Positions 38,286 to 59,816 of a DNA stretch of 64,000 nucleotides are shown here, one piece after another. The stretch's first letter is position 1. Every line of letters begins with the position of its first letter. The notes beneath the pieces are model-generated. The model did not search any database. It saw nothing but the letters and a program-made list of their open reading frames with translations, and was not told the DNA's origin. Source of the stretch: Patescibacteria group bacterium (lineage in GTDB: Bacteria > Patescibacteriota > Patescibacteriia > Magasanikbacterales > GWA2-37-8); the NCBI GenBank assembly GCA_041649475.1, contig JBAZNA010000001.1:328612-392611 (forward strand). Reading direction: 5' to 3'. The position numbers and the translations under genes are program-made.

Positions 38286-38300
38286 AATTAAGTATGAATA

Positions 38301-38361
38301 GTATGAGAGATGAAGTTTTGAGCACTAGCGACAGCTTGGCGAAAAACTTCATCTCTCATAC
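38301..38361 (+). repeat. conserved-loop hairpin element, copy 1 (19 bp perfect stem, 23 nt loop GAGCACTAGCGACAGCTTGGCGA)
   Basis: Left stem 'gtatgagagatgaagtttt' pairs with 'aaaacttcatctctcatac'. The loop is shared with four other copies. Confidence 0.7.
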
Positions 38362-38420
38362 TATCGTATTTATAATATGTAGCTATATTATACAACTTCC
38401 TTAGCTATACAGCAAACAGT

Positions 38421-38453
38421 CAAAAGGAACAAAAACGCCGGCTAGGCGGCCGG
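38421..38453 (-). terminator. candidate terminator of the HTH gene (short GC hairpin over the stop codon, T-run on the minus strand)
   Basis: 'ccggc taggcg gccgg'. The minus strand then reads 'cgtttttgttcctttt'. Confidence 0.35.
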
Positions 38454-38804
38454 TGTTTCTGGTTCATTTTCTTTTTTATTTTCTACAGTTTTGGGGTTGG
38501 GGGAGTAAAGGGGATTCTTGATCTTCCATTGACCTACAAATTGCCCAATTCCTTTATTAATCAGCTTGTTTTTAATTGTGGTATGGCGTTGTGACCACTT
38601 AACTAAGCTTTCAAAATTTAGTTTATATCTTCCGGCTACTATAATATAAGTGACTTCTTGAGCTGTAATAGCGCGTCTGATGGTTTGGGCATTTACACCA
38701 AAGAGTTTGGCGGCTTCAGAAATGGAGACCCTGATGATTTCTTTGGGGTTTTCTGTTTTTTTATTGTCTTCATTCATAGTAGAAGTATACAATAGTGTAT
38801 ACAA
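38442..38804 (-). CDS. small helix-turn-helix DNA-binding protein (excisionase/MerR-like HTH). The track start is TTG; an ATG at 38777 gives 111 aa
   Basis: 'ISEAAKLFGVNAQTIRRAI' HTH. Basic, 111 to 120 aa. Confidence 0.5.
   Translation of the reverse strand: MYTLLYTSTMNEDNKKTENPKEIIRVSISEAAKLFGVNAQTIRRAITAQEVTYIIVAGRYKLNFESLVKWSQRHTTIKNKLINKGIGQFVGQWKIKNPLYSPNPKTVENKKENEPETPAA
38785..38804 (+). promoter_or_regulatory. operator-like 20 nt element GTATACAATAGTGTATACAA, copy 1 (two GTATAC palindromes), at the HTH gene start
   Basis: An exact second copy lies at 38975 to 38994. A related 'tgtatacgcttgtctatacaa' is at ~38862. Confidence 0.45.
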
Positions 38805-38899
38805 TCATAGCACAGCTACAGATATTTGTCAATCAAATCATATAGATAGTTGTTGTATTTATTATATTTGTATACGCTTGTCTATACAATTTTACAATA

Positions 38900-38963
38900 A
38901 TACACACGGAAAAGTAGTATTTTTCGCCAAGCTATCGCTAGTGCAAAAAACCTCATGTGTGTA
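38900..38963 (-). repeat. conserved-loop hairpin element, copy 2 (minus orientation, imperfect stem)
   Basis: Contains 'ttttcgccaagctatcgctagtgcaaaaaa', the reverse complement of GCACTAGCGATAGCTTGGCGAAAA. Flanks 'tacacacgg' and 'cctcatgtgtgta' pair with a bulge. Confidence 0.55.
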
Positions 38964-38974
38964 CTATTATGTTT

Positions 38975-38994
38975 GTATACAATAGTGTATACAA
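38975..38994 (+). promoter_or_regulatory. operator-like element GTATACAATAGTGTATACAA, copy 2
   Basis: Identical 20-mer ~190 nt from copy 1. Confidence 0.45.
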
Positions 38995-39013
38995 ATTATT
39001 ACAGATACTGACA

Positions 39014-39109
39014 ACTTACAGACATAAAGAAGATTTTAAGCACTAGCGAAACACCTTTAAATCAAGTATGTGTGGAGCTTGGCGAAAAATCTTCTTTATG
39101 TCTGTAAGT
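39014..39109 (+). repeat. conserved-loop hairpin element, copy 3 (24 bp perfect stem; loop carries a ~25 nt insertion)
   Basis: Stem 'acttacagacataaagaagatttt'/'aaaatcttctttatgtctgtaagt'. Loop 'aaGCACTAGCGAA-acacctttaaatcaagtatgtgtgg-AGCTTGGCGA'. Confidence 0.65.
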
Positions 39110-39136
39110 CTTTGTGTGGGTATTTGTATATTTTAT

Positions 39137-39165
39137 TTGACCAAACCTTGAAATTTTGCTAAAAT
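39137..39165 (+). promoter_or_regulatory. sigma-70-like promoter upstream of the ECF sigma gene
   Basis: TTGACC, 17 nt spacer, TAAAAT. Confidence 0.35.
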
Positions 39166-39200
39166 ATGTAACATTAATTTTGAGCTATAACAAGGTAGGT

Positions 39201-39225
39201 GTAACACTTTTAATTATTTTACGTC
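39201..39225 (+). promoter_or_regulatory. ECF-type promoter (GTAAC-N16-CGTC) abutting the sigma gene start; implies autoregulation and a leaderless transcript
   Basis: 'gtAAC acttttaattatttta CGTcta' is an exact AAC-N16-CGT core. The ATG at 39233 is ~7 nt after CGTC. Confidence 0.45.
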
Positions 39226-39232
39226 TACTATA

Positions 39233-39796
39233 ATGTCAGCCAAGAAGCTTACCGAGAAAATCCTCCTCTATCAACTATATACTAAGCAAGATCCTGAAGC
39301 GTTTGCGAAACTTTACGATTTGTACGCAAGACGCATTTACAGGTTCGTTTTTTTTAAAGTTGCAAATCATGAAGAAGCCGAGGATGTTACTTCTGAAGTA
39401 TTTTTAAAGGCCTGGAATTTCATAAGCGAGAAGAAAAAGATTGATAGTTTCAGCGGGTTGCTTTACAAATTGGCACGCAATTGCGTGATTGATCTATACA
39501 GAAAAAAATCCAGACAAACAGAAATCTTGTCCCTGGATAATATAAATGAAGAAAGCGGGCTTGATATAAATGATGCCGGAAAATGGAAAGAAACATTCGG
39601 AGATAAAATGGAAGCGCAAAAAATCATTCAGGCCTTGCAAAAATTAAAACAAGAATATAGAGAAATAGTTACTCTGAAATATGTTGATGAACTGGATGTA
39701 AGCGAGATTTCCGAAATAACCGGAAAAGGCGGTATAGCAGTAAGAGTCACTTTGCATCGTGGTCTAAAAAAATTGAAAGAGCTTTTGGAAGGTTAA
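39233..39796 (+). CDS. ECF-family RNA polymerase sigma-70 factor
   Basis: 187 aa. Region 2 'LYKLARNCVIDLYRKK'; region 4 'EYREIVTLKYVDELDVSEISEITGKGGIAVRVTLHRGLKKLKE'. Confidence 0.8.
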   Translation: MSAKKLTEKILLYQLYTKQDPEAFAKLYDLYARRIYRFVFFKVANHEEAEDVTSEVFLKAWNFISEKKKIDSFSGLLYKLARNCVIDLYRKKSRQTEILSLDNINEESGLDINDAGKWKETFGDKMEAQKIIQALQKLKQEYREIVTLKYVDELDVSEISEITGKGGIAVRVTLHRGLKKLKELLEG

Positions 39797-39799
39797 AAT

Positions 39800-41119
39800 A
39801 TGTATCGCAACATAATTAAACAACTCAAAACTCTGAAACATCAGGATGTCAATCCTAGCAATGAGTGGTTAGAGAATAACCGCGGGCTTTTGCTGTCTCA
39901 AATAAAAAATACAGTTACCCAGGAACCTTCCCAATTTAAAATGGAGAATGTCTGGCAGAGCCTGTCCATCTTTTTACCGCAATCCTTTGTTAATTCAATA
40001 GTTCGCCCGGCCTTGGCGCTGGCCCTCATTATGGGTATGGTTGGTGGCGGCTGGCTTGGAACAGTGTCAGCTTCAGCCGAAGCTCTGCCCGGGGATTGGT
40101 TATATGCTGCTAAGAAAATTACAGAACAAACCCAAGCGGCGGTGGTGGCGGTTGTTGGAGATAAGAAGGCCGAGGCCAGCTTACATGTGGAGTTTGCCAA
40201 ACGCCGAGCCATAGAAACCAAAAAAATTATCAGCGATCCGCAGAAAATCGGTATGGCCATGAACACTGTTAATGATTTGAAAAATGAAATTCAAACTGTG
40301 AGCAGCACCTTGAATGATTTAAAAACTAATACCGACGCGTCGGTATCCGCTCAAACCGCCAAAGACATATCTCAAAATGCGGTGCAAATCCAGGATGTCT
40401 TAACTTCCGTAAAAACAGATCTTTTAACCACTCCAACCAGCACAGCGGCCAGTTTAAGTGATTTGACCACCCGGGTAGCTGAAGCCAAAAATTTAACCAA
40501 AGACACTGCGGTGAAAGCAATGGAAGTTATGGTAACCAAACATTTGCAGGGTGATAATAGCGTTTCCAAAGATGAAGTAAAACAAGTTATAAATAATCAA
40601 TTGCAATCTGCGGTTGCCGATGCCGCCGTATCTCAACAAAATACCGCGGATGTTAATCAAGCCATCAATATTGTAAAAACCGAAGTGGCTGCTATTTCCA
40701 AAGACGCCAAGCAAGATAAAAATACAAGTTTAGTCAGCAGTACGCAAGTGCTGTCCACCAAATTGGAAGCCGCCAGCATTCAGACCCAGGTTGCGGTAAG
40801 TCAGACCCAACAAGTCGGGGTTGTCGCCAATCAACAAGCAAGCGAAGGCCAACAGCTTCTATCTCAAGGCAACTTATTGCAAGCTGTTGATAAAGTAAAA
40901 GTGGCTTCAGATGCCACCAAGGTATCAGAACAGATTGCCGACAATACCATTAAAACTGTTCAGACCGTATTACCGGTGGTATCGGTTGTGGGTGATAAAG
41001 GGGTATCCTCAAGCATATCAGCGGTTGTTATCACCTCAACACCATCAAGCAGCAGTACGGTGGGTATTGTCGTGAGCAGTTCAACGGTTATAATATTGCC
41101 AACCAGCACGGTAAAATAG
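39800..41119 (+). CDS. probable anti-sigma factor / membrane-anchored coiled-coil protein (assigned by context)
   Basis: Starts 4 nt after the sigma gene. ~70 aa cytoplasmic N-terminus, one TM 'ALALALIMGMVGGGWLG', then a long Ala/Gln/Thr/Val-rich extracellular region. Confidence 0.45.
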   Translation: MYRNIIKQLKTLKHQDVNPSNEWLENNRGLLLSQIKNTVTQEPSQFKMENVWQSLSIFLPQSFVNSIVRPALALALIMGMVGGGWLGTVSASAEALPGDWLYAAKKITEQTQAAVVAVVGDKKAEASLHVEFAKRRAIETKKIISDPQKIGMAMNTVNDLKNEIQTVSSTLNDLKTNTDASVSAQTAKDISQNAVQIQDVLTSVKTDLLTTPTSTAASLSDLTTRVAEAKNLTKDTAVKAMEVMVTKHLQGDNSVSKDEVKQVINNQLQSAVADAAVSQQNTADVNQAINIVKTEVAAISKDAKQDKNTSLVSSTQVLSTKLEAASIQTQVAVSQTQQVGVVANQQASEGQQLLSQGNLLQAVDKVKVASDATKVSEQIADNTIKTVQTVLPVVSVVGDKGVSSSISAVVITSTPSSSSTVGIVVSSSTVIILPTSTVK

Positions 41120-41246
41120 TTTTTTCTTCCCGCACTGCAGGCAAGATTTATTGTCTGTAACGCGGAGAGAAAAAGTTAGTAAGTAGTAGTTATTATTAAC
41201 GGTCTTAGCAAAGGTTGAGGGTCCATGAGGACTCGCCTAGACCATT

Positions 41247-44200
41247 GTGTCTCTTGCAGGTATCCTAACGGAAATTTGCGAGGGAAAAAATAATCTTAAT
41301 TTAAATATGACCGATGTATTAAAACTAGGAAAGAGAATCTTTACCATCGGCGTTGTTGTAACCACAATCATGTGGTCACTTGGCGTAGTTTCATTAGCTT
41401 CAACCGTTGCTAATGCCGCATCATGTCCAACTTTATCAGCTGGCAACATGATTAAGGTAACTGGCAAGGCAGCTATCTATGCTGTAAACAATGCTTCAAA
41501 GGTATTGTATTTTCCTTCCGGAGATGAATTTAAGAGCTGGAACGTAAACAACACCTACGGTGGCTATATTTCAGTCACCCAGGAATGTTTTGACTCTTTG
41601 TCAGTTCCCAGCACTTATCCAGGCGGAGTAAACTATCGCCCGGGTTCTTATGTTGTAAAGAGACCGTCTTCAGATCAATTATATGTAGTTGAACCAGGAA
41701 ATACTTTGGCAAAAATCAGCGTAACTGATGCCAAGGCCCTCTATGGCGCAACCTACAAAGTAATGACAGTTGCTGATCCGTTCTGGCCGCATTATGTTAA
41801 CCGCGGTGCAGACATTGCTGGCTTAGCCCATGAGGGCATGCTGGTAAGCAAGGACAGCAAAACATGGTATGTCGCCGCCGGTAACGTCCTTCGTGAAGTT
41901 ACTGCTACAGGCATGACTGCCAACAGATTCAAGACCGCATTTGTACATGCTGTTCCTGCTGCTTATTTAGCAGGATTCACCACTGGTGCTGTGCTTGATT
42001 CTTTAGATTCAACAATCAGCAACCGAACACAGGACGGAGCAATTGCTCCGGGTACTGGCGGTAACTTAACAGTGGCCTTAGCCGCAGATAATCCAGCAGC
42101 TGCAAACATTGCTGATGGATCTGCCTATAACGCTGTTTTGAAGTTAGCCCTAAGCGCTGGTAGCGCCACAAAAGTAACTGGTATTACCTTAACCAAAACT
42201 GGTTTAATCGCTAATACCAATATTACTGGCGTCAGCATTTGGGACGCGGAAGGAAATCGCCATGGCGATGTCATGACCTCCTTCACTTCAGACAATAAAG
42301 TAACTGTGGGCTTTGCCGGCAACCCAATCTTGGTTTCTTCCGGCGCCCCGGAATCTTTAATTGTCAGGTTAAATATTTCCGCTGCTGCTAACTCCGGTTT
42401 GGTTGGAATGAAAGTCGCTGCTGCCACTGATATTACTTCAGACGGCACAGTTGGCGGTTCATTCCCAATCACTGGCAACCAGATGAGTATTATTGACGGC
42501 AATGCATCATTAGCTATAGTTTCATCTACTAATGTAGCTGTCGGTGGTATTACAAATGGCAGTGAGGCAACAATTGCTCTCGCCAACATTTCAGTTGGTG
42601 ATGTCGGCAAAGAAATTGCCAAATTCAAATTCACAGAGAGCAGCGGCAATGAAGATGTTGTTATTTCAAGATTGACCTTCTATTTTGAAGGCAGCTTGCA
42701 AGACAAAGATCTTACCAATCTCTCTCTCGTGGCACCGGATGGTTCAGTATTGGGTACAGCGACCACTCTAGCTGATCGCTATGTGACCATAAATTTCACT
42801 AACCCGTATACTTTGCCAAAGAGCACCAACAGAACATTGACCTTAAAAGCCGATGTTGTTGATGGTTCAACTCATTATTTCCGCGTTCACTTACAGAATG
42901 ATTACGACATGTTGCTTAAGGGATCCACAACCGGGTTCTATATTTTACCGGACGGGTTCGCTGACCAATATGAAACAAACGGCTGGTTTGAAATCAAATC
43001 CGGCAGTTTGACTGTAAACAAGAACGTGGCTTCTCCAGCCGGGAATATCTCCTCTGGAGCTTCAGGAGTTGTGTTAGCAACCTTTGATATTAAAGCGGTT
43101 GGTGAGAACATGGAAATCCGCAAAATGGGCTTGGGAGTAGTAACTACTACTGCTTCAACCCATAAGTTAACCGGTAATATTTCTGTACAGGATTCCAGCG
43201 GCAATACCTACTTGACCGTCGCTGCTTCTGATGTAAATTTGTATTACCCAACGCAGGGCAAACAATATAACATGTCCAGCTACTTGACAATCAACTCTGG
43301 TAGTACCAAGACCTTGCAAGTAGTCGGCAATATTGATTCCCTTGCCAGCGGAGACACCTATAAGATTGCTGTTGGTGATTTCTATGCCAAGAGATTATCT
43401 ACTCTTGACTTCAAAGATAATCTGCCAACTGTTGTGCCAACCAGCACAGCCGCCAATCAATTGGCCGTGAGTGCAACCGCACTTACCTGCTACAAAGATA
43501 CTGCCATGGGTAATGTGACCCGCGCCAGCGGATCAAATACCGTTCTTGGCCAGTACATTTGTACAGCCGGCACCTCTGAAGATATTGCTTTAAGCAGCAT
43601 GACCTTCGCCTTTGGTGATACCGGCAGTGCAGCCAATACTTTCCAGAATGTAGCTCTGTATGATGGAACCACTCAATTGGGCTCCACCTTAAGCACCGTA
43701 GCTTCCACTTCAAATGGTTATACTTTCAGTTTAACTGTTCCGAAGGGCACTACTAAGACCTTGCAATTACAGGGTCTGATAATTTCAGGCGCTTCCGGTG
43801 TCGTGAGTTCATCCATCTCAGCGTATAACTACACTGGCAAGAGCAGCAACAATTCCACATCCTACACCACTCCTCTGATCGTTGGTCAGAATGTGACCGT
43901 GGGAAATGGTACATTGGGAATCGCTGCGGCATCTGATGCCTCAACTATCTCCAAGATCTACGGTCCGAGTCAGACCGGTGTTCAGCTTGGTAAGTGGAAA
44001 TTATCCGCGGCCAGCGATAGCGTGACCTTAAACAAGTTGTCGTTTACTTTAAGGCTGCCGGATGGTGCTCCTATTATTGACTACACCACTTCAGGTCTAT
44101 TCGGTCTGTTAACATTGTACGATTCTACCGGCGCTGCCTTAGCTACAGGCAATTATGTTGCTGGCAATGTTGTTTTCACCGGGCTCACTCTTGAAATCCC

Positions 44201-45014
44201 GATGGATTCATACAAAGTCATTACCTTAAAAGGTAACACTAATGGCTCAGGCGTGATTAACAAAGATCAACCGGTTGACTTCGTAATCAAGAGTAATAGC
44301 AATACGGACATGGAAGCCAGATCAGGCGCAGGTTCTTTATTGGCAGCCGCCGATATTGGCCTTACCACTGCTGGTAGCAATTCCGCAATGGAAAGATTTG
44401 CGACTTCTTCTGCCTACATCTTCCATGATGCGTATCCGACAATTACTGCCACATCTTTGGGCTCTGCCTTAGCTTTGGACACCAAAGCTCAAATACTTAA
44501 ATTCACAGTTACCAATTCTGGTGCCCGTGATTTAAGAGTTGGTTCAACTACGATTTCTGTTAGCGTGTCCGGTTTGGCCGGCGCAGGAACATCTAGTGGA
44601 ACAATCAGAGACTTCAGATTGTATGAAGATAACGGTTCAGGCGGACTTGGAACTTATCTTGCTGTAAACGATACAGTGGTAAATTCCAGCACAGCCAATC
44701 CATCCACCGTTACCTTTGATGGGGCTCAAGCGGCCACAACTGGTTCAATGAGTAATATTACTATTGGTCCAGGCGCCGCGATTACCTTTATTGTCACTGC
44801 TGACACATCCAATATGGGTACTAGCAAGACCTCAGGCACCAGCGTAACGCTGTCTGCCAAGATTGCCGGTTCAACAGGTTGGAGCGGTTCAGCGTGGAAT
44901 ACAGGCAACTTGTTCTACTACTACACTCCAGTCGGAGGTAGCGAGAACACTGTTCCTTATTCAGCTTCAGATTCTTACGAAGTGTCCGGATCAACAATGA
45001 CCCGAGCCTTCTAA
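41247..45014 (+). CDS. large (1255 aa) Ser/Thr/Gly-rich surface protein, S-layer/adhesin-like, with tandem Ig-like beta-sandwich repeats (an ATG at 41307, 'MTDVLKLGKR', may be the true start)
   Basis: Signal/anchor 'IFTIGVVVTTIMWSLGVVSLASTVANAAS'. ~200 aa N-domain, then ~1000 aa of low-complexity repeats ('TLTLKADVVDG', 'TKTLQLQGLII', 'VITLKGNTNGSG'). Sits directly downstream of the ECF pair. Confidence 0.6.
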   Translation: MSLAGILTEICEGKNNLNLNMTDVLKLGKRIFTIGVVVTTIMWSLGVVSLASTVANAASCPTLSAGNMIKVTGKAAIYAVNNASKVLYFPSGDEFKSWNVNNTYGGYISVTQECFDSLSVPSTYPGGVNYRPGSYVVKRPSSDQLYVVEPGNTLAKISVTDAKALYGATYKVMTVADPFWPHYVNRGADIAGLAHEGMLVSKDSKTWYVAAGNVLREVTATGMTANRFKTAFVHAVPAAYLAGFTTGAVLDSLDSTISNRTQDGAIAPGTGGNLTVALAADNPAAANIADGSAYNAVLKLALSAGSATKVTGITLTKTGLIANTNITGVSIWDAEGNRHGDVMTSFTSDNKVTVGFAGNPILVSSGAPESLIVRLNISAAANSGLVGMKVAAATDITSDGTVGGSFPITGNQMSIIDGNASLAIVSSTNVAVGGITNGSEATIALANISVGDVGKEIAKFKFTESSGNEDVVISRLTFYFEGSLQDKDLTNLSLVAPDGSVLGTATTLADRYVTINFTNPYTLPKSTNRTLTLKADVVDGSTHYFRVHLQNDYDMLLKGSTTGFYILPDGFADQYETNGWFEIKSGSLTVNKNVASPAGNISSGASGVVLATFDIKAVGENMEIRKMGLGVVTTTASTHKLTGNISVQDSSGNTYLTVAASDVNLYYPTQGKQYNMSSYLTINSGSTKTLQVVGNIDSLASGDTYKIAVGDFYAKRLSTLDFKDNLPTVVPTSTAANQLAVSATALTCYKDTAMGNVTRASGSNTVLGQYICTAGTSEDIALSSMTFAFGDTGSAANTFQNVALYDGTTQLGSTLSTVASTSNGYTFSLTVPKGTTKTLQLQGLIISGASGVVSSSISAYNYTGKSSNNSTSYTTPLIVGQNVTVGNGTLGIAAASDASTISKIYGPSQTGVQLGKWKLSAASDSVTLNKLSFTLRLPDGAPIIDYTTSGLFGLLTLYDSTGAALATGNYVAGNVVFTGLTLEIPMDSYKVITLKGNTNGSGVINKDQPVDFVIKSNSNTDMEARSGAGSLLAAADIGLTTAGSNSAMERFATSSAYIFHDAYPTITATSLGSALALDTKAQILKFTVTNSGARDLRVGSTTISVSVSGLAGAGTSSGTIRDFRLYEDNGSGGLGTYLAVNDTVVNSSTANPSTVTFDGAQAATTGSMSNITIGPGAAITFIVTADTSNMGTSKTSGTSVTLSAKIAGSTGWSGSAWNTGNLFYYYTPVGGSENTVPYSASDSYEVSGSTMTRAF

Positions 45015-45051
45015 GTAGTTTGAGTTGAATTCTGTAAAAAGTTTACAGAAC

Positions 45052-45078
45052 AAAACCCGCCCGCAAGGGCGGGTTTTT
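45052..45078 (+). terminator. rho-independent terminator (GCAA tetraloop)
   Basis: 'acccgcc c gcaa g ggcgggt' followed by ttttt. Confidence 0.75.
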
Positions 45079-45079
45079 G

Positions 45080-45108
45080 TTGACAAAAACATACTTATTG
45101 TGTATAAT
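45080..45108 (+). promoter_or_regulatory. perfect sigma-70 consensus promoter for typA
   Basis: TTGACA (45080 to 45085), 17 nt spacer, TATAAT (45103 to 45108). ATG at 45134. Confidence 0.6.
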
Positions 45109-45133
45109 TTTGTCACCGCAATCTTAAATATTT

Positions 45134-46945: not shown

Positions 46946-46961
46946 TATTAAATGCCTTTAC

Positions 46962-47033
46962 GCCGCCATCGTCTAATGGCTAGGACATTACCCTCTCACG
47001 GTAGTAATAGGGGTTCGATTCCCCTTGGCGGTA
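46962..47033 (+). tRNA. tRNA-Glu (anticodon CTC)
   Basis: Glu-like D arm 'cgtctaatggctaggac', anticodon stem ttacc/ggtag with loop 'ctCTCac', T arm 'aggggttcgattcccct'. Confidence 0.8.
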
Positions 47034-47044
47034 CAATTCTAATT

Positions 47045-52324: not shown

Positions 52325-52863
52325 CTTTAAAATTTCTACTGCACACCTGTTGTGCGCCGTGCAGTATCGCCATAATTGATGAATTGAAAAACAAATTTGC
52401 GCTGACGGTCTTTTTTTATAATCCCAACATTTTTCCCTTTGCTGAATATGAAAAGCGCAAAGCCGAGGTAGTGCGGGTTTGCCAGGAGTGGGGTGTACCG
52501 ATGATTGATATGGATTATGAGGCGGACAAATGGCACAAGGAAGTGGCCGAGGGTTTGGAAATGGAAGCGGAAGGAGAGTCCAGGTGCGCGCTGTGTTTCC
52601 GGTTCCGGCTGGCCAAAACCGCCGAGTACGCCAAGAAAAACGGTTTTCATTATTTCAGCAGCAGTTTAACCAGCGGCCGCAACAAACCAGCCGAAGTGAT
52701 AAATTCAATTGGCAAAGTTTTTGGCAAGCATTACAAAGTGAAGTTTTATGATGTTGATTGGAAAAAAGACGGACGGCAGGAAAAGGCAAAGAAGATGGTT
52801 GAGGAGAGGGGAATATACAGACAAAATTATTGCGGGTGCGAGTCGTCAATTAAGAAACCGTGA
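52321..52863 (+). CDS. queH: epoxyqueuosine reductase QueH (DUF208)
   Basis: 'LLHTCCAPCS' Cys cluster plus 'CALCF' and 'YCGCE'. Confidence 0.75.
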   Translation: MTLKFLLHTCCAPCSIAIIDELKNKFALTVFFYNPNIFPFAEYEKRKAEVVRVCQEWGVPMIDMDYEADKWHKEVAEGLEMEAEGESRCALCFRFRLAKTAEYAKKNGFHYFSSSLTSGRNKPAEVINSIGKVFGKHYKVKFYDVDWKKDGRQEKAKKMVEERGIYRQNYCGCESSIKKP

Positions 52864-53269
52864 TTTTTCTTTTCGTTTCTTCCAGATGTTCCAATAAAAT
52901 TGAGATGGTTTTTTTATTTTGTAAAAGTCCGGAAATTTTTTCCGGCCATTCAATCACGCAAATTGTATTTGGTTTTCCCAGATAATCTTCTACTCCAATA
53001 TCAATCAGTTCCTGCGCGTTTTTTAACCGGTAGGTGTCAATGTGAACAAAATTTCGGCCGGCTGGCATCGGGCAGACATTCATCAGAGTAAAAGTGGGAC
53101 TGGTCATTTCATTTTTTATTCCCAAACCGCGCGCCAGGCCTTTAATCAGGGTGGTTTTGCCGGCGCCGAGTTCGCCGGATAATAACACAACCTCTCCGCC
53201 TTTTAATTTTGCGGATAGGTCCTGGCCGAATTTTTCAGTTTCTTTTTCCGAATTTGTGATCATAGGCAT
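52850..53269 (-). CDS. tsaE: tRNA t6A37 biosynthesis ATPase TsaE
   Basis: 139 aa. P-loop 'LSGELGAGKTT'. 'SPTFTLMN' motif. Confidence 0.8.
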   Translation of the reverse strand: MPMITNSEKETEKFGQDLSAKLKGGEVVLLSGELGAGKTTLIKGLARGLGIKNEMTSPTFTLMNVCPMPAGRNFVHIDTYRLKNAQELIDIGVEDYLGKPNTICVIEWPEKISGLLQNKKTISILLEHLEETKRKITVS

Positions 53270-53341
53270 ACTTGAATAATTTTACCTCGTCCTATTTGAC
53301 CGTGTCAATACCAAGTGGTATTCTTATATTGGCCTGGTTTA

Positions 53342-53414
53342 CGGGTTGTAGCGAAGTTGGTATCGCGCATGCATGGGGTGCATGAGATCGCGGGTTCAAG
53401 TCCCGCCAGCCCGA
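53342..53414 (+). tRNA. tRNA-Pro (anticodon GGG)
   Basis: Acceptor cgggttg/cagcccg, D arm gcga-agttggta-tcgc, anticodon stem catgc/gcatg with loop 'atGGGgt' (G37), T arm gcggg-ttcaagt-cccgc. Confidence 0.85.
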
Positions 53415-53416
53415 CT

Positions 53417-54247
53417 ATGATTAATGAAAATCGACTTGTTGCTCATGCTTGGATTTTTGATGTTGACGGAGTTCTTACTCATCCAAGCGAAAAAAAAGTT
53501 ACTAAGCAAGAATTATTTTTTCAGCTTATTAAAAGATTAGAAGCCGGCGAACCTGTGATTTTGAATTCAGGACGAGCGGTAGATTTTATGCTTAAAAATA
53601 TTCTTGATCCAGTTGAACGGTTAGTTGAGGACAAAAAGTTTCTCAAAAATTTGTTCGCTGTCGGTGAAAAAGGGGCTGTGAGTGTTTTGTATAATGACAA
53701 CAAGGAGCGTACAGAGTACATAGATCGTTCAATAATTGTGCCTCAAGAATTGCAAAATGAGGCCCGAAAATTAGTTGAAGAAAAATTCAGCGACATTGCT
53801 TTTTATGATTTGACTAAAAAAACCATGATTTCTATAGAGATGCACGATGGTTTGTCTGTTGATGAATTTAGAAAAAGACAAGGAGAACTGGGCAAAAAAT
53901 TATCAGAACTGCTGGAACAGCATGGCCTTACTGCAAAATATAGGGTTGAGCTTACCAGGATTGCGATTGATGTTGAAAACAAGCATGTGGGCAAGGGTTT
54001 GGGAGTGCAAAGAGCTCTGCAGTGGCTGTCTGAACAAAAAATCAAACCGGAGAAATTTATTGCTTTTGGCGATAGCCCGTCAGATGCGGCAATGGCAGCT
54101 GAATTGCAAGAGCGGGGCCTGCCGGTAGAATTTGTCTTTGTCGGCGAAAAAGACCTTTTGGCCGATCAAAAATTTGACTTTCACATCACCTATACCAAAG
54201 GGCAATGCGAGGAAGGCACGGTAGAATATTTAAAAGGCCTGGAATAA
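53417..54247 (+). CDS. HAD-superfamily hydrolase (start trimmed to the ATG 3 nt after tRNA-Pro; the track ORF from 53315 overlaps the tRNA)
   Basis: Motif I 'IFDVDGVLT', motif III 'FGDSPSDAAM'. Confidence 0.65.
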   Translation: MINENRLVAHAWIFDVDGVLTHPSEKKVTKQELFFQLIKRLEAGEPVILNSGRAVDFMLKNILDPVERLVEDKKFLKNLFAVGEKGAVSVLYNDNKERTEYIDRSIIVPQELQNEARKLVEEKFSDIAFYDLTKKTMISIEMHDGLSVDEFRKRQGELGKKLSELLEQHGLTAKYRVELTRIAIDVENKHVGKGLGVQRALQWLSEQKIKPEKFIAFGDSPSDAAMAAELQERGLPVEFVFVGEKDLLADQKFDFHITYTKGQCEEGTVEYLKGLE

Positions 54248-54250
54248 ACT

Positions 54251-54279
54251 AGCCCCCTTTTTTTGTCGGGGGCTTTTTT
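54251..54279 (+). terminator. rho-independent terminator
   Basis: 'gccccc'/'gggggc' stem followed by tttttt. Confidence 0.65.
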
Positions 54280-54283
54280 GTAT

Positions 54284-54311
54284 TTGACATACTATACCAT
54301 ATTGGTATGAT
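54284..54311 (+). promoter_or_regulatory. sigma-70-like promoter placing the start site within a few nt of the SDR ATG (apparently leaderless)
   Basis: TTGACA, 16 nt spacer, TATGAT (54306 to 54311). ATG at 54320. Confidence 0.35.
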
Positions 54312-54319
54312 TTAAGTAT

Positions 54320-54919
54320 ATGAAACTTGATGTCAAACACAAAACTATTTTTATCACCGGACCAAGCGTGGGCATCGGCAGGGAGACGGCTTTAAAATTC
54401 GCCCGCGCCGGCTGTAGTTTGGCTATTACTTATTATAAGGATAAGGAAGAGGCGATGGAAGTGGCTGACAAATGCCGGCGTCTGGGTGCAAAGGATGTGC
54501 AAGCGGTACGGCTTGATTTAATGGATGATCAAAGCATACGCTTGGCCGTGGGTGAAGTGGTTGAAAGGTTCGGAGAGATCTCGGTGTTGATTAATAATGC
54601 CGGAGTGGTTGTTTGGAAGCCCCTAAGCGAGCAGAGTTTTGAAAATATTGAACAGCAAGTACGGATAAACGTTGAGGGTTTGATTAAAATAACCAGAGCT
54701 TGCCTGCCGCATATCAAGGACTCAATCATCAACATTGTCGGCGATGCCGGCAGGGAAGGGATGGAGAATTTGGTTACTTATTGGACTGCCAAATTTGCAG
54801 TCAGGGGTTTTACCGAGGCCTTGGCCAGAGAATTGCCGGAGATAAAAGTATCGGCGGTTAACGAAGATCCGGCCTCATTCAATACAGCAATCAATAGCTT
54901 TCTTTACAATCGCGCGTAA
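54320..54919 (+). CDS. short-chain dehydrogenase/reductase (SDR), short at 199 aa
   Basis: 'TGPSVGIGRETALKFARAG', 'NNAG', 'YWTAKFAVRGF' (YxxxK). Confidence 0.65.
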   Translation: MKLDVKHKTIFITGPSVGIGRETALKFARAGCSLAITYYKDKEEAMEVADKCRRLGAKDVQAVRLDLMDDQSIRLAVGEVVERFGEISVLINNAGVVVWKPLSEQSFENIEQQVRINVEGLIKITRACLPHIKDSIINIVGDAGREGMENLVTYWTAKFAVRGFTEALARELPEIKVSAVNEDPASFNTAINSFLYNRA

Positions 54920-55447
54920 TTTGCCCATAAATCCCTGATTACTGACGCCGGCAGCCGGAGGAACAGGCAAACTTTTGTCAGTGTCATGCCTGTTTAAGGC
55001 CTCTTCATCTATTTTTTTGATGTCATCGGTTTTAATGAGTTTCAAATTGATGCCCCAGAACATTGAATATAAATCATAGGCCTTGCTAAACAATCCCAGC
55101 GCTTCTTCTTTTTTCCCGACCCCCTGGGCCTTGGTGCCGACTTCCATTAGACGCATGGATGCCGCGAGCAGATGTTTGGAAATGCACCAGACCTCGCCTT
55201 CCGGTTCTTTGACGATTTTTTTCAGCAGGGTTTTTCTCATTTCACGCACTTCCTGGAGTAAATCAAAATATGCCGGCTTGTCCAGTTTGGCGCCGGTAAA
55301 AAAGAAATGTTCTTCAATACTCACTAAATTCATTATGGCAATGGACAGATCTTCATCGGAAGACAGATCCATTTTTTCCTGTTTGGACAGATTGTTTACT
55401 TTTTGCACTAATTGATCCAGATTGTATAAATTATTTTCTTCGGGCAT
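54875..55447 (-). CDS. hypothetical protein (convergent 45 nt overlap with the SDR gene)
   Basis: 190 aa. No motif recognised. Confidence 0.35.
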   Translation of the reverse strand: MPEENNLYNLDQLVQKVNNLSKQEKMDLSSDEDLSIAIMNLVSIEEHFFFTGAKLDKPAYFDLLQEVREMRKTLLKKIVKEPEGEVWCISKHLLAASMRLMEVGTKAQGVGKKEEALGLFSKAYDLYSMFWGINLKLIKTDDIKKIDEEALNRHDTDKSLPVPPAAGVSNQGFMGKLRAIVKKAIDCCIE

Positions 55448-55456
55448 ATGTAATAA

Positions 55457-55894
55457 TTATCTTGTGAGCAAGTAAAATATTAAACTGAAAATTAAAAGTG
55501 GCACAACCGGAGCCACGACTTTTTCAAAAGGAAAATGCGCTTTGCCGTTTTTTCTTTTAATATAATCATACCAGGCAATGCCGGCAGTCAGGCCGATACT
55601 CCCCAGCAGGAAGCCGAACATTATTTTATCAATTCCCCAAAGCTTGTTTTGCGGATGTCCCATGATGCCGGCGAGTTCCAGGGGTATGAGGACCATGGCA
55701 TAGTAAGCCAGGAGAACGAGAACCTCCTTAGCTTTGAAGTTTATATTTTTTTTAGTCAGCCAATTTATTGTCCATAAACTGACGGCCACGGTGAGTCCGC
55801 CGATCCACAACCCGCTGATAGTATCGTCTATTCCCAACCATCGGGAAAGTCCGACTCCGGCGGAAACCACGACAATGCAAACTGGGCAAGGCAT
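55457..55894 (-). CDS. small polytopic membrane protein starting 'MPCPVCIVVVS' (start trimmed from 56017 to remove overlap with the upstream gene)
   Basis: CxxC at the N-terminus, followed by 4 hydrophobic segments. Confidence 0.4.
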   Translation of the reverse strand: MPCPVCIVVVSAGVGLSRWLGIDDTISGLWIGGLTVAVSLWTINWLTKKNINFKAKEVLVLLAYYAMVLIPLELAGIMGHPQNKLWGIDKIMFGFLLGSIGLTAGIAWYDYIKRKNGKAHFPFEKVVAPVVPLLIFSLIFYLLTR

Positions 55895-55905
55895 AATTTT
55901 TTGGA

Positions 55906-56397
55906 TTACTTGTTTATGTATTGCTGTAAATAATTTGTAACCTGGTCTTCGCCTTCGTAGCATTTGCTTCCGTCCCATAGCAGAGGCACACCCAGCTGAT
56001 TGCCGGTGATGCCGCATTTTTGGGCGGTTTTGGCCATGTCGCTTGCATTATTTTGATCATGATACACTTCCACCCGGTTTATTTTGACTTTTTGGTCAAT
56101 ATTGTTTGTTTTTATAAACTCTTCAACCCGGGCGCAATGAGGACACTCCTGGCCATAATATAAAGTCAGCCCCTCGGCCGGTTTTTGGCCTTTGAAAAAG
56201 AAAATGGCGCCGACAACTATAACGATTGCCAGAATAATTAAAATTACTGTTTTTTTCATAAAACTTAAGTTAGGCTGTCGCTTTGGCCAGTGTTCTTCGG
56301 CAGGTGGAACAGACCCTGATGCTTTTGCCGCTGATTTTGAGCAATTGCAGATTAGGATTTTGTCTGCGCGGAACTTTTCGGTTGGAGTGGCTGACAT
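55906..56397 (-). CDS. membrane-anchored thioredoxin-fold (glutaredoxin/DsbA-like) protein with a CPHC active site
   Basis: TM 'VILIILAIVIVVGAIFFF', 'YYGQECPHCARVEEFIK', C-terminal 'PLLWDGSKCYEG'. Confidence 0.6.
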   Translation of the reverse strand: MSATPTEKFRADKILICNCSKSAAKASGSVPPAEEHWPKRQPNLSFMKKTVILIILAIVIVVGAIFFFKGQKPAEGLTLYYGQECPHCARVEEFIKTNNIDQKVKINRVEVYHDQNNASDMAKTAQKCGITGNQLGVPLLWDGSKCYEGEDQVTNYLQQYINK

Positions 56398-56549
56398 TGT
56401 TGGCGCGAGCCGATGATTTGCCGCATAAATCGCATGATCTGGACATAAAGTTGATTACTTAGTGTTAATAAGATATAATTACTTTGTAGAAAAGTGGATT
56501 AATTGTATCTTGAAAAACTGTTTTTGTCAAATGATAATATGGATAAGTT

Positions 56550-57158
56550 ATGGAATTGATTTTTTATTTTTTAATTATCATTCCTTCAGCCATAATTCAT
56601 GAATATGCTCATGGCTGGGCCGCTGATTTGATGGGCGATCCAACTGCGAAATTCGCGGGTCGCCTGACCATAAATCCGGTCGCGCACATAGATTTGTGGG
56701 GAACGATTTTAATGCCGCTGGTGCTATATTTTTTAACCGGAGGCCAGTTTATGTTTGCTTACGCCAAACCGGTTCCGTATAATCCCTATAACTTAAAAAA
56801 CCAAAAATGGGGTCCGGCCTTGGTGGCAATTGCCGGGCCGATAGCTAATTTTTTGCTGGCTTTTGTTTTTGCCATGGTTTTAAGGTTCGTACCTATAGGG
56901 GTTTTCAATCCTGGTCTAATTTCTTTCCTTGACATAATAGTTTACGCCAATATAATGCTGATGGTCTTTAATCTGGTGCCGATTCCGCCCTTGGACGGAT
57001 CAAAGGTTTTGTACGCGGTCTTGCCGGCATCGGCGCAAAATGTAAAATTGTTTTTGGACAGATACGGGTTTATTATCTTATTGGTTTTTATTTTCTTTTT
57101 ATTTGAATTGATCTCGCCGATTATAGACGGCATATTCAGATTGCTGGTGGGTTATTAA
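56550..57158 (+). CDS. intramembrane zinc metalloprotease, site-2-protease (M50)-like
   Basis: 'IIHEYAHGWAADLMGD' (HExxH inside the first TM), further TM helices, and a second motif 'LVPIPPLDGSKVL' (M50 LDG box). Confidence 0.6.
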   Translation: MELIFYFLIIIPSAIIHEYAHGWAADLMGDPTAKFAGRLTINPVAHIDLWGTILMPLVLYFLTGGQFMFAYAKPVPYNPYNLKNQKWGPALVAIAGPIANFLLAFVFAMVLRFVPIGVFNPGLISFLDIIVYANIMLMVFNLVPIPPLDGSKVLYAVLPASAQNVKLFLDRYGFIILLVFIFFLFELISPIIDGIFRLLVGY

Positions 57159-57192
57159 TATATTTTAATTTTTTATTCATTAATGTAAAAAT

Positions 57193-57531
57193 ATGAAATT
57201 ATTGTTTAGATGGTTAATTAGCGCGCTAGTTTTAATGTTCATTGCTTATTACGTGCCGGGTATTCATGTGACCAGTTTTTATTCGGCCTTGGTGGCGGCT
57301 TTGATTTTGGGTTTGGTCAATGCCCTGATAAGGCCATTGCTTTTATTGCTAACCTTGCCGATAAATATTTTTACTTTTGGACTGTTTACCTTAGTCATAA
57401 ACGCCTTAATGTTCTGGCTGGCCTCAACAGTGGTCAAAGGTTTTTATGTGGCTGGATTTTGGCCCGCCTTTTGGGGGGCTTTGATTATGTGGATAGTCGG
57501 CTGGTTTGTAAACAGTTTATTAAAAAAATAG
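57193..57531 (+). CDS. YvlD/phage-holin-4_2 family small membrane protein
   Basis: 'YVPGIHVTSFYSALVAALILGLVNALIRPLLLLLTLPINIFTFGLFTLVINALM' closely follows the YvlD family pattern. Confidence 0.6.
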   Translation: MKLLFRWLISALVLMFIAYYVPGIHVTSFYSALVAALILGLVNALIRPLLLLLTLPINIFTFGLFTLVINALMFWLASTVVKGFYVAGFWPAFWGALIMWIVGWFVNSLLKK

Positions 57532-57544
57532 AGTTTGGATATTG

Positions 57545-57605
57545 GGTAGTGATATATGTTTTTGAGCACTAGCGATAGCTTGGCGAAAAAACATATATCA
57601 CTACC
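57545..57605 (+). repeat. conserved-loop hairpin element, copy 4 (19 bp perfect stem, loop GAGCACTAGCGATAGCTTGGCGA)
   Basis: Stem 'ggtagtgatatatgttttt'/'aaaaacatatatcactacc'. Sits 14 nt after the stop of the preceding gene. Confidence 0.7.
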
Positions 57606-57753
57606 AATGAATAAAGTTTATATATTATATGAAAAACTACTCTTCAAACAGAGCACAAAAAGGGAAGACAGCATTTAGGACTCCAAGCATGTTTAAGGTG
57701 TTTAAATCACAATTTGCTAAAAACAAAATAAATAATAAAATGAACAATAAAAT

Positions 57754-58443
57754 ATGGTCAAACCAGAAGTCAAAGTGATTTCCATCGGCGGATCAATCAT
57801 AATTCCCAAGACCGGATTTGACATAGAGTTTCTAAAAAAATTTCGGGAAATGATAATCGCACGGGTAAAGACGGGTGAAAGATTTATTCTGGTTGTCGGC
57901 GGCGGCAGCACTTGCCGCGCCTATCAGGCGGCCGCCAAAAGCGTTGTTGATCTTTCCGGCGTGGATTTGGATTGGCTTGGTATTGCCGCGACTCATTTTA
58001 ACGCCCAGTTTGTTAAATTATTATTTGGTGATCTGGCCTATCCGCAAATTGTTGACAACCCGACTAAAAAAATAAAAACTAATAAACCGATAATAGTCGC
58101 CGGCGGCTGGCAACCGGGTTGCTCAACCGACAGAGACGCGGTGCTACTGGCCAAGACCTACGGGGCTAAAGAAGTGATAAACGCTTCCAACATAGATTTC
58201 GTTTATACGGCTGACCCGAAAAAAGATCCCAGTGCCAAGCCGATCCCCAAAATGACTTGGCCGCAGATGCAAAAAATAGTAGGGGAGATGTGGAGTCCGG
58301 GCGCCAATTTGCCTTTTGATCCTTTGGCCACCAAAGAAGCCGGTAAACTAAAACTAAAGGTTTCTTTTGTCAAAGGCACGGACTTAAAAACATTTGCCAA
58401 TATTTTAAATAAAAAAGAGTTTCAGGGGACAGTTGTTGAATAA
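57754..58443 (+). CDS. pyrH: amino-acid-kinase-family protein, archaeal-type UMP kinase-like
   Basis: 'VISIGGSII', 'LVVGGGSTCRAY'. ~229 aa, the size of archaeal-type PyrH. Confidence 0.5.
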   Translation: MVKPEVKVISIGGSIIIPKTGFDIEFLKKFREMIIARVKTGERFILVVGGGSTCRAYQAAAKSVVDLSGVDLDWLGIAATHFNAQFVKLLFGDLAYPQIVDNPTKKIKTNKPIIVAGGWQPGCSTDRDAVLLAKTYGAKEVINASNIDFVYTADPKKDPSAKPIPKMTWPQMQKIVGEMWSPGANLPFDPLATKEAGKLKLKVSFVKGTDLKTFANILNKKEFQGTVVE

Positions 58444-58457
58444 TTAATTTTTTGCGT

Positions 58458-58619
58458 ATGTCGGTTGAAAAGCCAGTATCATTAAAAGAATTTTTAGAGA
58501 AAGAAACGCCCCAAGAAAAATTAGCCAAACACCTCCGCAGTTTACCGGATGAGGATAAACGCCGTCGAGCTGTCATTAAGGCCGCCGCCAATGCTGAAAA
58601 GAAGCAAAAACATGAGTAA
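58458..58619 (+). CDS. small basic hypothetical protein (53 aa; below the ORF-track cutoff)
   Basis: The ATG starts the frame 'MSVEKPVSLKEFLEKETPQEKLAKHLRSLPDEDKRRRAVIKAAANAEKKQKHE', and the gene fills the gap before the rplJ promoter. Confidence 0.3.
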   Translation: MSVEKPVSLKEFLEKETPQEKLAKHLRSLPDEDKRRRAVIKAAANAEKKQKHE

Positions 58620-58622
58620 TGC

Positions 58623-58782
58623 TTGACATTATTTTTATTATAGGTTATCATTTGGACATCCATAGACAGTAGGTGCCCTTTGGGCTTAATCTCCTACCGA
58701 GGTGCAAAAGCTAGATTTAAAGCTAATTTAGGTCGATTGTACCGTTTGGTCTGTGGTGGATATCACAGATTTTTTGTTAAAT
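58623..58782 (+). promoter_or_regulatory. rplJ promoter (TTGACA-17-TATCAT) plus a ~130 nt structured leader (candidate L10-leader autoregulatory element)
   Basis: TTGACA at 58623, TATCAT at 58646. The leader contains 'ggtgccctttgggc' and other stems. Confidence 0.35.
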
Positions 58783-59313
58783 ATGCCAAAAACAAAACAA
58801 CAGAAACAATCAACCGTAAAAATCCTTGTTGATGGTTTAAAGAGCGCCAAAGCCGCTGTTTTTGCCAACTTCCAGGGTTTGAAAGTTTCCGAAGCAGAGC
58901 AGTTGCGACGCGAATGCCGCAAAAATAACATCCAAGTATTGGCTGCCAAAAAAACCCTGGTTAAAAGAGCTTGTGAAGATATTGGTTTAACCGATATCAA
59001 CCCAAAAATCTTTTCCGGCGGCGTGGCCACGTTTATGGCCCAGGGCGATGAGGTGTCGGCGGCAAAAATTGTAAGTAATTTTGCCAAGACCCATCAAATT
59101 GTCACCGTTTTCGGCGGTATCATGGAAGGCAAATTCGTTGATGCTTTGGCTATAAAAAGTTTAGCCAGTTTGCCAAGCAGACAGGAACTTTTATCAAGGT
59201 TGGTTGGCACAATCAATGCGCCGGTTTCCGGTTTCGTCAATGTGTTGGCCGGAAATTTACGCAATTTGGTTGGCGTATTAAATAATATTAAATCCGCAAA
59301 GGGCGGAGCTTAA
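58783..59313 (+). CDS. rplJ: 50S ribosomal protein L10 (track start GTG 58753; ATG 58783 preferred)
   Basis: 'MPKTKQQKQSTVKILVDGLKSAKAAVFANFQGLKVSEAEQLRRECRK'. Immediately upstream of rplL. Confidence 0.85.
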   Translation: MPKTKQQKQSTVKILVDGLKSAKAAVFANFQGLKVSEAEQLRRECRKNNIQVLAAKKTLVKRACEDIGLTDINPKIFSGGVATFMAQGDEVSAAKIVSNFAKTHQIVTVFGGIMEGKFVDALAIKSLASLPSRQELLSRLVGTINAPVSGFVNVLAGNLRNLVGVLNNIKSAKGGA

Positions 59314-59326
59314 TTAAAATAATTAT

Positions 59327-59731
59327 ATGACTGACGAACAAAAAAACGTTGAGGTGCCGAAAAAGTTTGCGGCCCTCGTAGAGGAAATAGAAAAAATGTC
59401 CGTTCTGGATCTTTCCGAATTGGTGAAGATTCTGGAAGACAAGTTCGGCGTATCAGCCGCCGCTCCGGCCATGATGATGGCCGCACCGGCCGCGGGAGCC
59501 GCATCGGCCGCTGAAGAAAAATCAGAGTTCAATGTTGAACTTACTGACGCGGGCGCTTCCAAGATCAACGTGATCAAGGCAGTGAAAGAAATAACCGGTC
59601 TTGGTTTAGCCGATGCCAAAGCTTTGGTAGACGGCGCTCCAAAAATGATTAAAGAAGGCGTCAAGAAAGATGATGCCGAAGCCATGAAAAAGAAAATTGA
59701 AGAGGCCGGAGGCAAGGTTACACTAAAATAA
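59327..59731 (+). CDS. rplL: 50S ribosomal protein L7/L12
   Basis: Ala-rich hinge, then '[56 protein letters not shown]'. Confidence 0.95.
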
Positions 59732-59743
59732 TCTTTAGACAAT

Positions 59744-59816
59744 ACAAAAGAGGGATGGAAAGAGTTTTTCGCCAAGCTTCGCTAGTGCTCAAAACTCTTT
59801 CCATCCCTCTTTTTGT
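59744..59816 (-). repeat. conserved-loop hairpin element, copy 5 (about 25 bp stem; loop is the reverse complement GAGCACTAGCGAAGCTTGGCGA). Probable bidirectional terminator between rplL and the convergent gene
   Basis: Stem 'acaaaagagggatggaaagagtttt'/'aaaactctttccatccctctttttgt'. Loop 'tcgccaagcttcgctagtgctc'. Confidence 0.7.

Follow-up and report, generated by a model that had tools for sequence, protein, structure and literature searches.

A short GC-rich loop module on unrelated, perfectly paired stems in Patescibacteria intergenic DNA

A 64,000-nucleotide (nt) stretch of the genome of a Patescibacteria group bacterium (assembly GCA_041649475.1, contig JBAZNA010000001.1, positions 328,612 to 392,611; hereafter the window, whose own coordinates are used below) contains five dispersed hairpins in which one short and nearly invariant sequence, which we call F1, forms the loop of long stems that are, with a single exception, unrelated from copy to copy. 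Protein neighbours place the genome close to Candidatus Magasanikbacteria. With moderate confidence, we favour the reading that F1 is an apical module acting at the level of DNA, that it is copied from one locus to another while its stems stay behind, and that template switching during replication keeps those stems perfect. We hold with the same measured confidence that F1 represents, in one lineage, a broader class of short GC-rich apical modules found in Magasanikbacteria-like Patescibacteria, and to a like degree that members of this class sit at the tips of intergenic inverted repeats that are long, perfectly paired and specific to their locus. A family defined only by its 31-nt apex escapes repeat finders and annotation pipelines, which seek conserved stems or similarity over a whole element.

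Results

A single apical module on five stems

The five copies proposed in an earlier note on the window are all present, and none is expected in 100 shuffles. Searches with the 23-mer GAGCACTAGCGANAGCTTGGCGA and a 22-nt variant gave three and one matches, respectively (0 expected, 100 shuffles), at 38320-38342 (plus strand), 38924-38946 (minus strand, two mismatches), 57564-57586 (plus) and 59769-59790 (minus). Each 10-nt half of the core, GCACTAGCGA and AGCTTGGCGA, occurs exactly five times when a split copy, copy 3, is counted, whose halves lie at 39040-39049 and 39076-39085 with 26 nt between them. All copies follow the pattern TTTT-(G/T/A)(A/T)GCACTAGCGA[C/T/-/26 nt]AGCTTGGCGA-AAAA, for which the chance expectation is none. 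Because the core is preceded by four or more T and followed by four or more A in all five copies, the conserved unit is 31 nt (T4, the 22/23-nt core and A4); the conserved loop of 22-23 nt described earlier is therefore right in its core and too short in its extent. The cores are 96-100% identical.

Copy 1 (38298..38364, plus strand) carries the core GAGCACTAGCGACAGCTTGGCGA at 38320-38342 between perfect arms of 22 base pairs (bp; 38298-38319/38343-38364), and an imperfect palindrome reaches outward from it to about 38289-38372. Copy 2 (38899..38965, minus strand) has an imperfect stem around the core TTGCACTAGCGATAGCTTGGCGA (38924-38946). In copy 3 (39014..39109, plus strand), perfect 24-bp arms (39014-39037/39086-39109) enclose the core halves AAGCACTAGCGA (39038-39049) and AGCTTGGCGA (39076-39085), which are split at the exact apex by the 26-nt segment 39050-39075, as the earlier report of a loop insertion of about 25 nt had it. 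Copy 4 (57545..57605, plus strand) has the core GAGCACTAGCGATAGCTTGGCGA at 57564-57586 on perfect 19-bp arms (57545-57563/57587-57605), and copy 5 (59746..59813, minus strand) the core GAGCACTAGCGAAGCTTGGCGA at 59769-59790 on perfect 23-bp arms (59746-59768/59791-59813). The stems are AT-rich and 19-24 bp long, and the loops measure 22-48 nt. Perfect hairpins of at least 19 bp number four in the window, and all four carry F1. When folded as RNA, the copies reach z-scores of -5.6 to -11.4 against shuffles; by nearest-neighbour DNA parameters the 23-nt core alone is no more stable than its shuffles, and the stable mini-hairpin that had been seen in the loop did not survive this comparison.

The arms present the opposite picture. 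Across the four perfect copies there are 88 stem pairs with zero mismatches and zero wobble (G-U) pairs, and the earlier description of the stems as mostly perfect holds, as does that of stems different in each copy, for all but copies 2 and 3. Pairwise local alignments of the arms were otherwise no better than shuffles, and no gradient of identity towards the core, that is, no shared inner-stem segment beyond T4/A4, was seen. In a register-fixed alignment, 11 of 16 arm pairs had changed on both sides. No arm matched other sequence in the window or in its own 400-nt flanks above the level of shuffles, except that copy 2 matches copy 3. Copy 2 is an inverted partial duplicate of the left arm and core of copy 3 (p = 0.005), and it merges into adjoining native sequence exactly where all relatives read TTTTAGCCAAG(T)T, which matches the end of the core at 13 of 15 positions. 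Half of the core could have originated here, or the junction could have offered microhomology on which the module landed. The absence of C from the 5' arms was considered as a mark of untemplated synthesis and dropped; the window has 130 stretches of 24 nt or more that lack C.

Since the cores are nearly identical, we conclude firmly that the module was copied between unlinked loci recently, and that its stems were left behind or newly made.

The copies in other assemblies and in databases

Could the similarity be due to chance, or the family be an artefact of assembly or of the library, for instance hairpin adapters that were left in place? The window does belong to a metagenome-assembled genome, and a constant centre between inverted repeats looks like adapter read-through. 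However, chance predicts no matches, the arms extend for only about 20 bp, and both flanks run on into syntenic genes. A second assembly, an ENA contig of 633,560 bp, has identical copies, as do Logan contigs of run SRR8542065, so the structures are not an assembly artefact; JGI, ENA and several Logan runs also yield assemblies in which comparable structures bear other modules. We regard the chance of such an origin as negligible. Two Logan contigs break exactly inside the loops of copies 4 and 5; these hairpins evidently break short-read assemblies, whose contigs end within the loops.

An exact-pattern scan for GCACTAGCGA-N(0-30)-AGCTTGGCGA returned 21 matches among GTDB representatives (one genome per GTDB species), 43 among JGI metagenome contigs and 2 in IMG/VR. 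All of them were chance-like and lay in unrelated, mostly GC-rich sequence without inverted flanks, and none extends the F1 family beyond the window genome. A covariance model of stem and core (R1), a check that the earlier note had proposed, identified only these five copies across the window and 87 kb of syntenic sequence from relatives, and the 7 kb beyond the window end held no further copy; about 71 kb of the genome of about 0.96 Mb is covered in this way. No Rfam family matched at its gathering score or at permissive thresholds, with only generic hairpin (miRNA precursor) matches below threshold, and a ribozyme, a K-turn or another known RNA motif was rejected on this ground. A search of the literature found no description of this architecture.

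Related genomes carry different modules

Syntenic loci of relatives (designated by L numbers) were collected through homologues of PyrH and of the ECF sigma factor. Third-codon identity reaches 0.68 for the window and L076 and is about 0.4 (saturated) for every other pair, and the closest homologue of the 758-aa protein encoded beside copy 5 is only 57% identical. The earlier note had suggested looking for the same loop in related genomes: F1 is absent from these approximately 87 kb, and other modules, F2 and F3, are present there.

Slot occupancy differs between genomes. At the site of copy 4, L072 has a 25-bp stem with a 55-nt GC-rich loop (F3) and the L079 contig starts inside a GC-rich F2 loop; the site is empty in L076/L078, L074 and L075, in which TATGAAAAAC directly follows the PF04020 stop codon and in comparison with which the window has about 94 nt more (block 57532-57625). 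The site of copy 1 holds a hairpin with F3 in L087 and is empty in L080, L082 and L086, against which the window has about 96 nt more (block 38286-38381). At the site of copy 3, L082 carries F2 on a 31-bp perfect stem, L080 a different GC-rich hairpin, and L086 and L087 an AT-rich spacer only. The site of copy 5 is occupied in L074 by a 28-bp perfect hairpin with an 8-nt loop, and in L071, L075 and L079 by ordinary GC-rich bidirectional terminators without a module. The L074 hairpin (4942-5005) consists of a canonical terminator core (GACCC...GGGTC with A/T runs) extended by 17 perfect pairs, and is a long perfect palindrome without a GC-rich module.

F2 (56 nt) was found in L072 (19549-19658), in L082 (9773-9882) and at the start of L079, and F3 (55-58 nt) in L072 (9754-9858) and L087 (about 955-1040); a search for F2 in IMG/VR found none. 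The F2 hairpin of L072, with 27 bp, stands between the MreB and glycosyltransferase genes, which abut in the window genome and in L075. Copies of F2 and of F3 have different arms and lie at different loci in different genomes, and the modules themselves are 86% (F2) and 88% (F3) identical across these loci and genomes. They are thus conserved far beyond neutral sites, and we conclude firmly that the module sequence is constrained or horizontally mobile. Four module families have common borders, T|GAGY...RGCGA|A, on one strand only, with GA replaced by TT, AA or TC in some copies. It is equally firm that the phenomenon is clade-wide, comprises several module families and extends beyond one genome.

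Position relative to genes and promoters

The convergent rplL and 758-aa genes are separated by 86 nt, which copy 5 fills, with an A-run before the stem and a T-run after it. Copy 4 sits in a co-oriented gene string, between the PF04020 membrane-protein gene and a small conserved open reading frame (ORF) upstream of pyrH. That ORF (57629-57755; MKNYSSNRAQKGKTAFRTPSMF..., start at TATATGAAAAAC) lies directly upstream of pyrH and is conserved, both in sequence and in place, in every relative examined; in L076 it is called as a gene of 49 aa. Copy 1 is situated 78 nt past a canonical terminator (38453-38438) of a helix-turn-helix (HTH) gene of the HTH_17 family and just upstream of the start of a 582-aa gene, in the leader of that gene. 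Copies 2 and 3 lie between divergent sigma-70-like promoters, one (38832-38804, minus strand) belonging to the HTH gene and the other (39137-39165) to the ECF sigma gene, with copy 3 between an operator-like palindrome and the -35 box of the latter.

Two features of this neighbourhood had been read differently. The intergenic region of 950 nt before the ECF sigma gene, previously thought unusually long, holds the conserved HTH_17 gene (38442-38776/38804, minus strand); the true spacer between the HTH and sigma genes is about 430-460 nt and is equally long in relatives. Three copies had been placed at gene 3' ends; copies 4 and 5 do follow genes, and copy 1 lies past the terminator of the HTH gene and in the leader of the next; copies 2 and 3 are upstream of both divergent promoters. 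The spacer contains operator-like palindromes, TTTGTATAC-N5-GTATACAAA, at 38786-38806, 38868-38890 and 38969-38995 and a half-site at about 39123-39131; the palindromes are conserved in L080, L082, L086 and L087 and are probably binding sites of the HTH regulator. The conserved element GTAACAC-N16-CGTCTAC just upstream of the sigma gene start resembles an ECF-type autoregulated promoter. A mobile cassette made up of the HTH gene with copies 1 and 2 was ruled out, since the HTH gene and the operator palindromes are syntenic in all relatives.

These positions bear on the suggestion that the loop motif is installed on terminator hairpins, which lacks support for four of the five copies. Copy 5 alone has A/T runs and a terminator position, and from these runs and its place after rplL it looks like a terminator; a scan of copies 1 to 3 against the terminator consensus called none. 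Rho-independent terminators combine a short GC-rich stem with a loop of 3-8 nt and a T-run, and ordinary GC-rich examples occur elsewhere in this genome (for example, 38453-38438). F1 stems are instead long and AT-rich with loops of 22-48 nt, and copies 1 to 4 have no T-run or lie outside transcription units.

A broader alternative is an RNA-level element, in which the hairpins are transcribed and their loop is bound by a protein or an RNA in termination, RNase III processing or transcript stabilisation. The loop, a tandem G.A motif with two G-C pairs and a GNNA or GAA apex, would be under selection and the stems would covary. Copy 5 does stand exactly where relatives have a bidirectional terminator, and copy 4 is placed inside a co-oriented gene string; the common borders of the four module families lie on one strand only, that strand folds better, and many stem changes are double-sided. 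Against this, copies 2 and 3 are upstream of both flanking promoters and copy 1 follows a canonical terminator. The GAGC...GCGA strand is sense at copy 4, antisense at copy 1 and at the L072 sites designated L072-A and L072-B, and at copies 2 and 3 probably untranscribed. RNA stems under selection would be expected to contain G-U pairs, unlike the 88 pairs here; in addition, copy 4 is missing from the closest relative, the border dinucleotide GA can be replaced, and no Rfam family matches. We consider an RNA-level element rather improbable. The wrong positions relative to promoters, the mixed orientation and the absence of wobble pairs lead us to state firmly that the pattern is unlike an ordinary terminator or a transcribed RNA family. 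The placement of copies 2 and 3 between divergent promoters and of copy 1 past a terminator, together with the mixed orientation and the lack of mismatches and wobbles, points to the DNA rather than the RNA level.

Variable stems of 19-24 bp on a constant loop also invite comparison with guide RNAs or defence systems, in which the stems would be acquired spacers on a constant scaffold, either shRNA-like or related to TIGR-Tas. TIGR stem-loop arrays with variable yet palindromic stems, and loops that hold conserved short motifs, are known in parasitic bacteria, including Patescibacteria and their phages (PMC12045711). TIGR copies, however, form tandem arrays beside a Tas (Nop-domain) gene, and their two variable spacers of 8-12 nt lie in the loop, bordered by box C / box D motifs, with the stems as mere flanks (PMC12045711). 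The F1 loop is constant, and its copies are dispersed over 21 kb at conserved junctions of housekeeping genes, with no array. No Nop-domain or Tas gene was found among the scanned window ORFs. The arms of copies 1, 3 and 4 had no exact IMG/VR match, and an 18-mer from the arm of copy 5 had three, which by our estimate is about the level of chance. A guide-RNA origin is therefore very improbable.

The ORF scan covered 41 of the 50 window ORFs of at least 90 aa. Among these 41, Pfam searches gave no match to a transposase, an HUH/Y1/RAYT nuclease, a reverse transcriptase, an integrase or a Nop domain, and 10 ORFs had no match of any kind.

Discussion

Our favoured reading, in which the apical module is copied between loci without its stems, can be put in terms of two processes. 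Stems would be bound to their locus and kept perfect, and sometimes extended, by intrastrand template switching in replication, which would copy one arm onto the other; in at least one case an arm appears to be the end of a native flanking gene. The module would reach a new apex by structure-directed insertion at hairpin apexes, carried out by a structure-specific enzyme, or alternatively by a microhomology-mediated template switch at the T-run and A-run that border every module. Effects on transcription (termination at copy 5, a structured leader at copy 1, an operon spacer at copy 4) would be by-products and not the reason for the family. Most likely, the family functions as selfish or structural DNA, with side effects on regulation. 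The module could move by apex insertion, by microhomology-mediated template switching or by transposition of whole hairpins.

Template switching can create perfect stems and maintain or repair them (PMC8794818). Two structures look, from their sequences, like its footprints: copy 2 as an inverted half-duplicate of copy 3, and a hairpin in L072 (1210-1280). In the latter, within the region 1210-1345, the 5' end of a tRNA-Pro gene (start 1272) forms the right arm of a 12-bp hairpin. The right arm comprises the first nine tRNA-Pro bases and three upstream bases; as this is native tRNA sequence, the left arm is an inverted copy of it. The interior of the hairpin, 47 nt, is itself a 15-bp AT-rich hairpin framed by TCGCTCG...ACTCACTC. 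The orthologous tRNA of the window (53342-53414) has no such hairpin leader. Apex structures are nested in two cases, the 26-nt segment at the apex of the copy 3 core and the L072 tRNA-leader hairpin, and both are consistent with apex insertion by a structure-specific enzyme. The earlier idea of a small element inserting into pre-existing hairpin loops comes closest to the evidence in respect of the module copied without stems, the exchanged slots and the nested apexes; that the stems of the five F1 copies existed beforehand is not borne out.

Exonuclease VII suppresses quasipalindrome template-switch mutations in Escherichia coli. Relatives encode its subunit genes, xseA and xseB, between the M50 peptidase and PF04020 genes (L071 7895-9309; L074 921-2227), and the corresponding locus of the window (57158-57193) has no gene. 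Given the effect of the enzyme on quasipalindrome mutation, the loss of xseAB from this locus could bear on palindrome dynamics.

Several observations weigh against the favoured reading. Homology of the stems at shared slots is marginal (p = 0.03-0.07): for the copy 3 site, p = 0.067 for the window against L080 and 0.48 against L082, and for the copy 1 site the comparison with L087 is suggestive (p = 0.03-0.05). The nearest relative, L076, with its third-codon identity of 0.68, has no hairpin at all at the copy 4 site, and therefore stems and module were gained together, or lost together there. Sequence comparison appears to support a native arm for no F1 copy, the arms of copy 4 matching neither nearby nor other window sequence. 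The GAGC...GCGA strand of F2 and F3 folds 3-5 kcal/mol better than its complement, which a function as RNA or single strand would also fit. No trans-acting enzyme was identified among the 41 scanned ORFs, and copies with related arms, the sign of whole-hairpin transposition, may exist elsewhere in the genome of about 0.96 Mb.

Another reading is that the whole palindrome of about 95 nt, arms and core, is a miniature inverted-repeat transposable element (MITE) moved by a transposase encoded elsewhere. Its core would be constrained as a recognition site, and its arms, which need only pair, would have diverged among old master copies. Copies of a MITE have common terminal inverted repeats and usually share their whole sequence. 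F1 resembles MITEs, such as the Correia elements of Neisseria or IS630-derived MITEs, in several ways: copies 1 and 4 are indels of near-equal length (about 96 and 94 nt against other genomes), palindromic almost to their ends and TA-bordered in AT-rich intergenic DNA; they are absent from relatives at orthologous sites; and through insertion a leader or an intergenic spacer can acquire a hairpin. A direct TA target-site duplication may flank these two copies in the comparison with two empty sites, and the AT-rich context could equally supply such a TA. L082 and L079 moreover have in common an F2 subtype and about 13 of 15 nt of inner arm. On the other side, F1 copies share only the central 31 nt and their terminal repeats, which a transposase would normally bind, are the least conserved part. 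Apart from copies 2 and 3, no arms are similar despite cores that are 96-100% identical, and if copy 4 was gained after the split from L076, too little time has passed to randomise its arms, unless its source lies in the unseen part of the genome. Because the closest relative lacks a hairpin at the copy 4 site, no F1 arm matches local or window sequence and stem homology at the slots is marginal, a whole-hairpin MITE with drifting arms is a serious rival; overall we judge it unlikely.

A stronger form of the favoured reading may be entertained, tentatively and as a somewhat doubtful possibility. Here a hairpin apex of 23-56 nt would be all that a minimal mobile element passes on; it would home specifically into existing hairpin apexes or seed a new palindrome by fold-back (snap-back) synthesis, each copy building perfect stems from adjacent sequence. 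We know of no described precedent among bacterial repeats for targeting that is directed by structure and independent of sequence.

No known family fits F1. REP, BIME and REPIN elements (repetitive extragenic palindromic sequences and their compound forms) are proteobacterial, are mobilised by RAYT transposases, and have a conserved stem with a GTAG/CGTC tag. F1 arm ends carry no GTAG or CGTC tag, and no RAYT match was obtained among the 41 scanned ORFs. These elements are, like F1, short intergenic hairpin repeats, often between convergent genes; they are dispersed in numerous copies, with side effects on termination and mRNA stability, and they combine a conserved stem with a variable loop or spacer, the reverse of the arrangement in F1 (PMC3733652). 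The contrast with REP, MITE and CRISPR architecture drawn in the earlier note is thus valid. The attC sites of integrons, which adjoin an integrase gene and cassettes, likewise have conserved outer core sites (R''/R') and a variable centre, the opposite of F1, and no integron integrase was found among the scanned ORFs.

The closest analogue, in behaviour only, is the palindromic GC clusters of yeast mitochondria and related organellar hairpin elements, which are also short GC-rich palindromic modules in the AT-rich spacers of a reduced genome, variably present at homologous sites, common to several species, constrained in sequence and prone to merging and nesting (PMC4478555; PMC2800124). GC clusters differ from F1 in that their hosts are organelles, that they have no sequence similarity to it, that they have not been described at the apex of long, perfect, locus-specific AT-rich inverted repeats, and that a putative AG target duplication has been reported for them, of which none was seen with F1. 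Quasipalindrome template-switch mutation, for its part, explains the wobble-free stems, the copied tRNA-Pro arm of L072 and the inverted half-duplicate that is copy 2. It is, however, a mutational process and not an element family, and alone it leaves the same 31-nt centre at five unlinked loci unexplained.

If modules are copied from apex to apex, they would constitute a very small mobile unit with structure-based targeting, and they would offer a natural experiment on the origin, upkeep and tolerance of perfect palindromes in bacteria whose repair systems are reduced. If apexes home or act by snap-back synthesis, they would be generators of new terminators, leaders and cruciforms in the streamlined genomes of Patescibacteria. 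The hairpins alter gene junctions, with a terminator replaced, a leader receiving an insertion and an operon junction split, and may in this way contribute significantly to regulatory change in this group.

Other features of the window

An island of about 300 nt at 32800-33100 has 64-65% GC, compared with 44% for the genome. It lies within the 520 nt that separate genes for a GT4 glycosyltransferase and an EamA-type permease, lacks an intact long ORF, and contains a 14-bp inverted repeat (33012-33025/33051-33064) followed by a GC-rich terminator-like hairpin (33127-33158). The island could be what is left of a foreign gene, or a GC-rich insert of some other kind. Its inverted repeat (33012-33064) matches a core half of F1 with one mismatch and was rejected as a member of the family, being other sequence in a GC-rich setting. 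The window also encodes two very large ORFs, of 2567 aa (6333-14036) and 1255 aa (41247-45014, no Pfam match). ORFs neighbouring them match Big_5, T4SS-pilin-like, Laminin_G_3 and TSP3 repeat families, and the region is therefore probably a cell-surface gene cluster.

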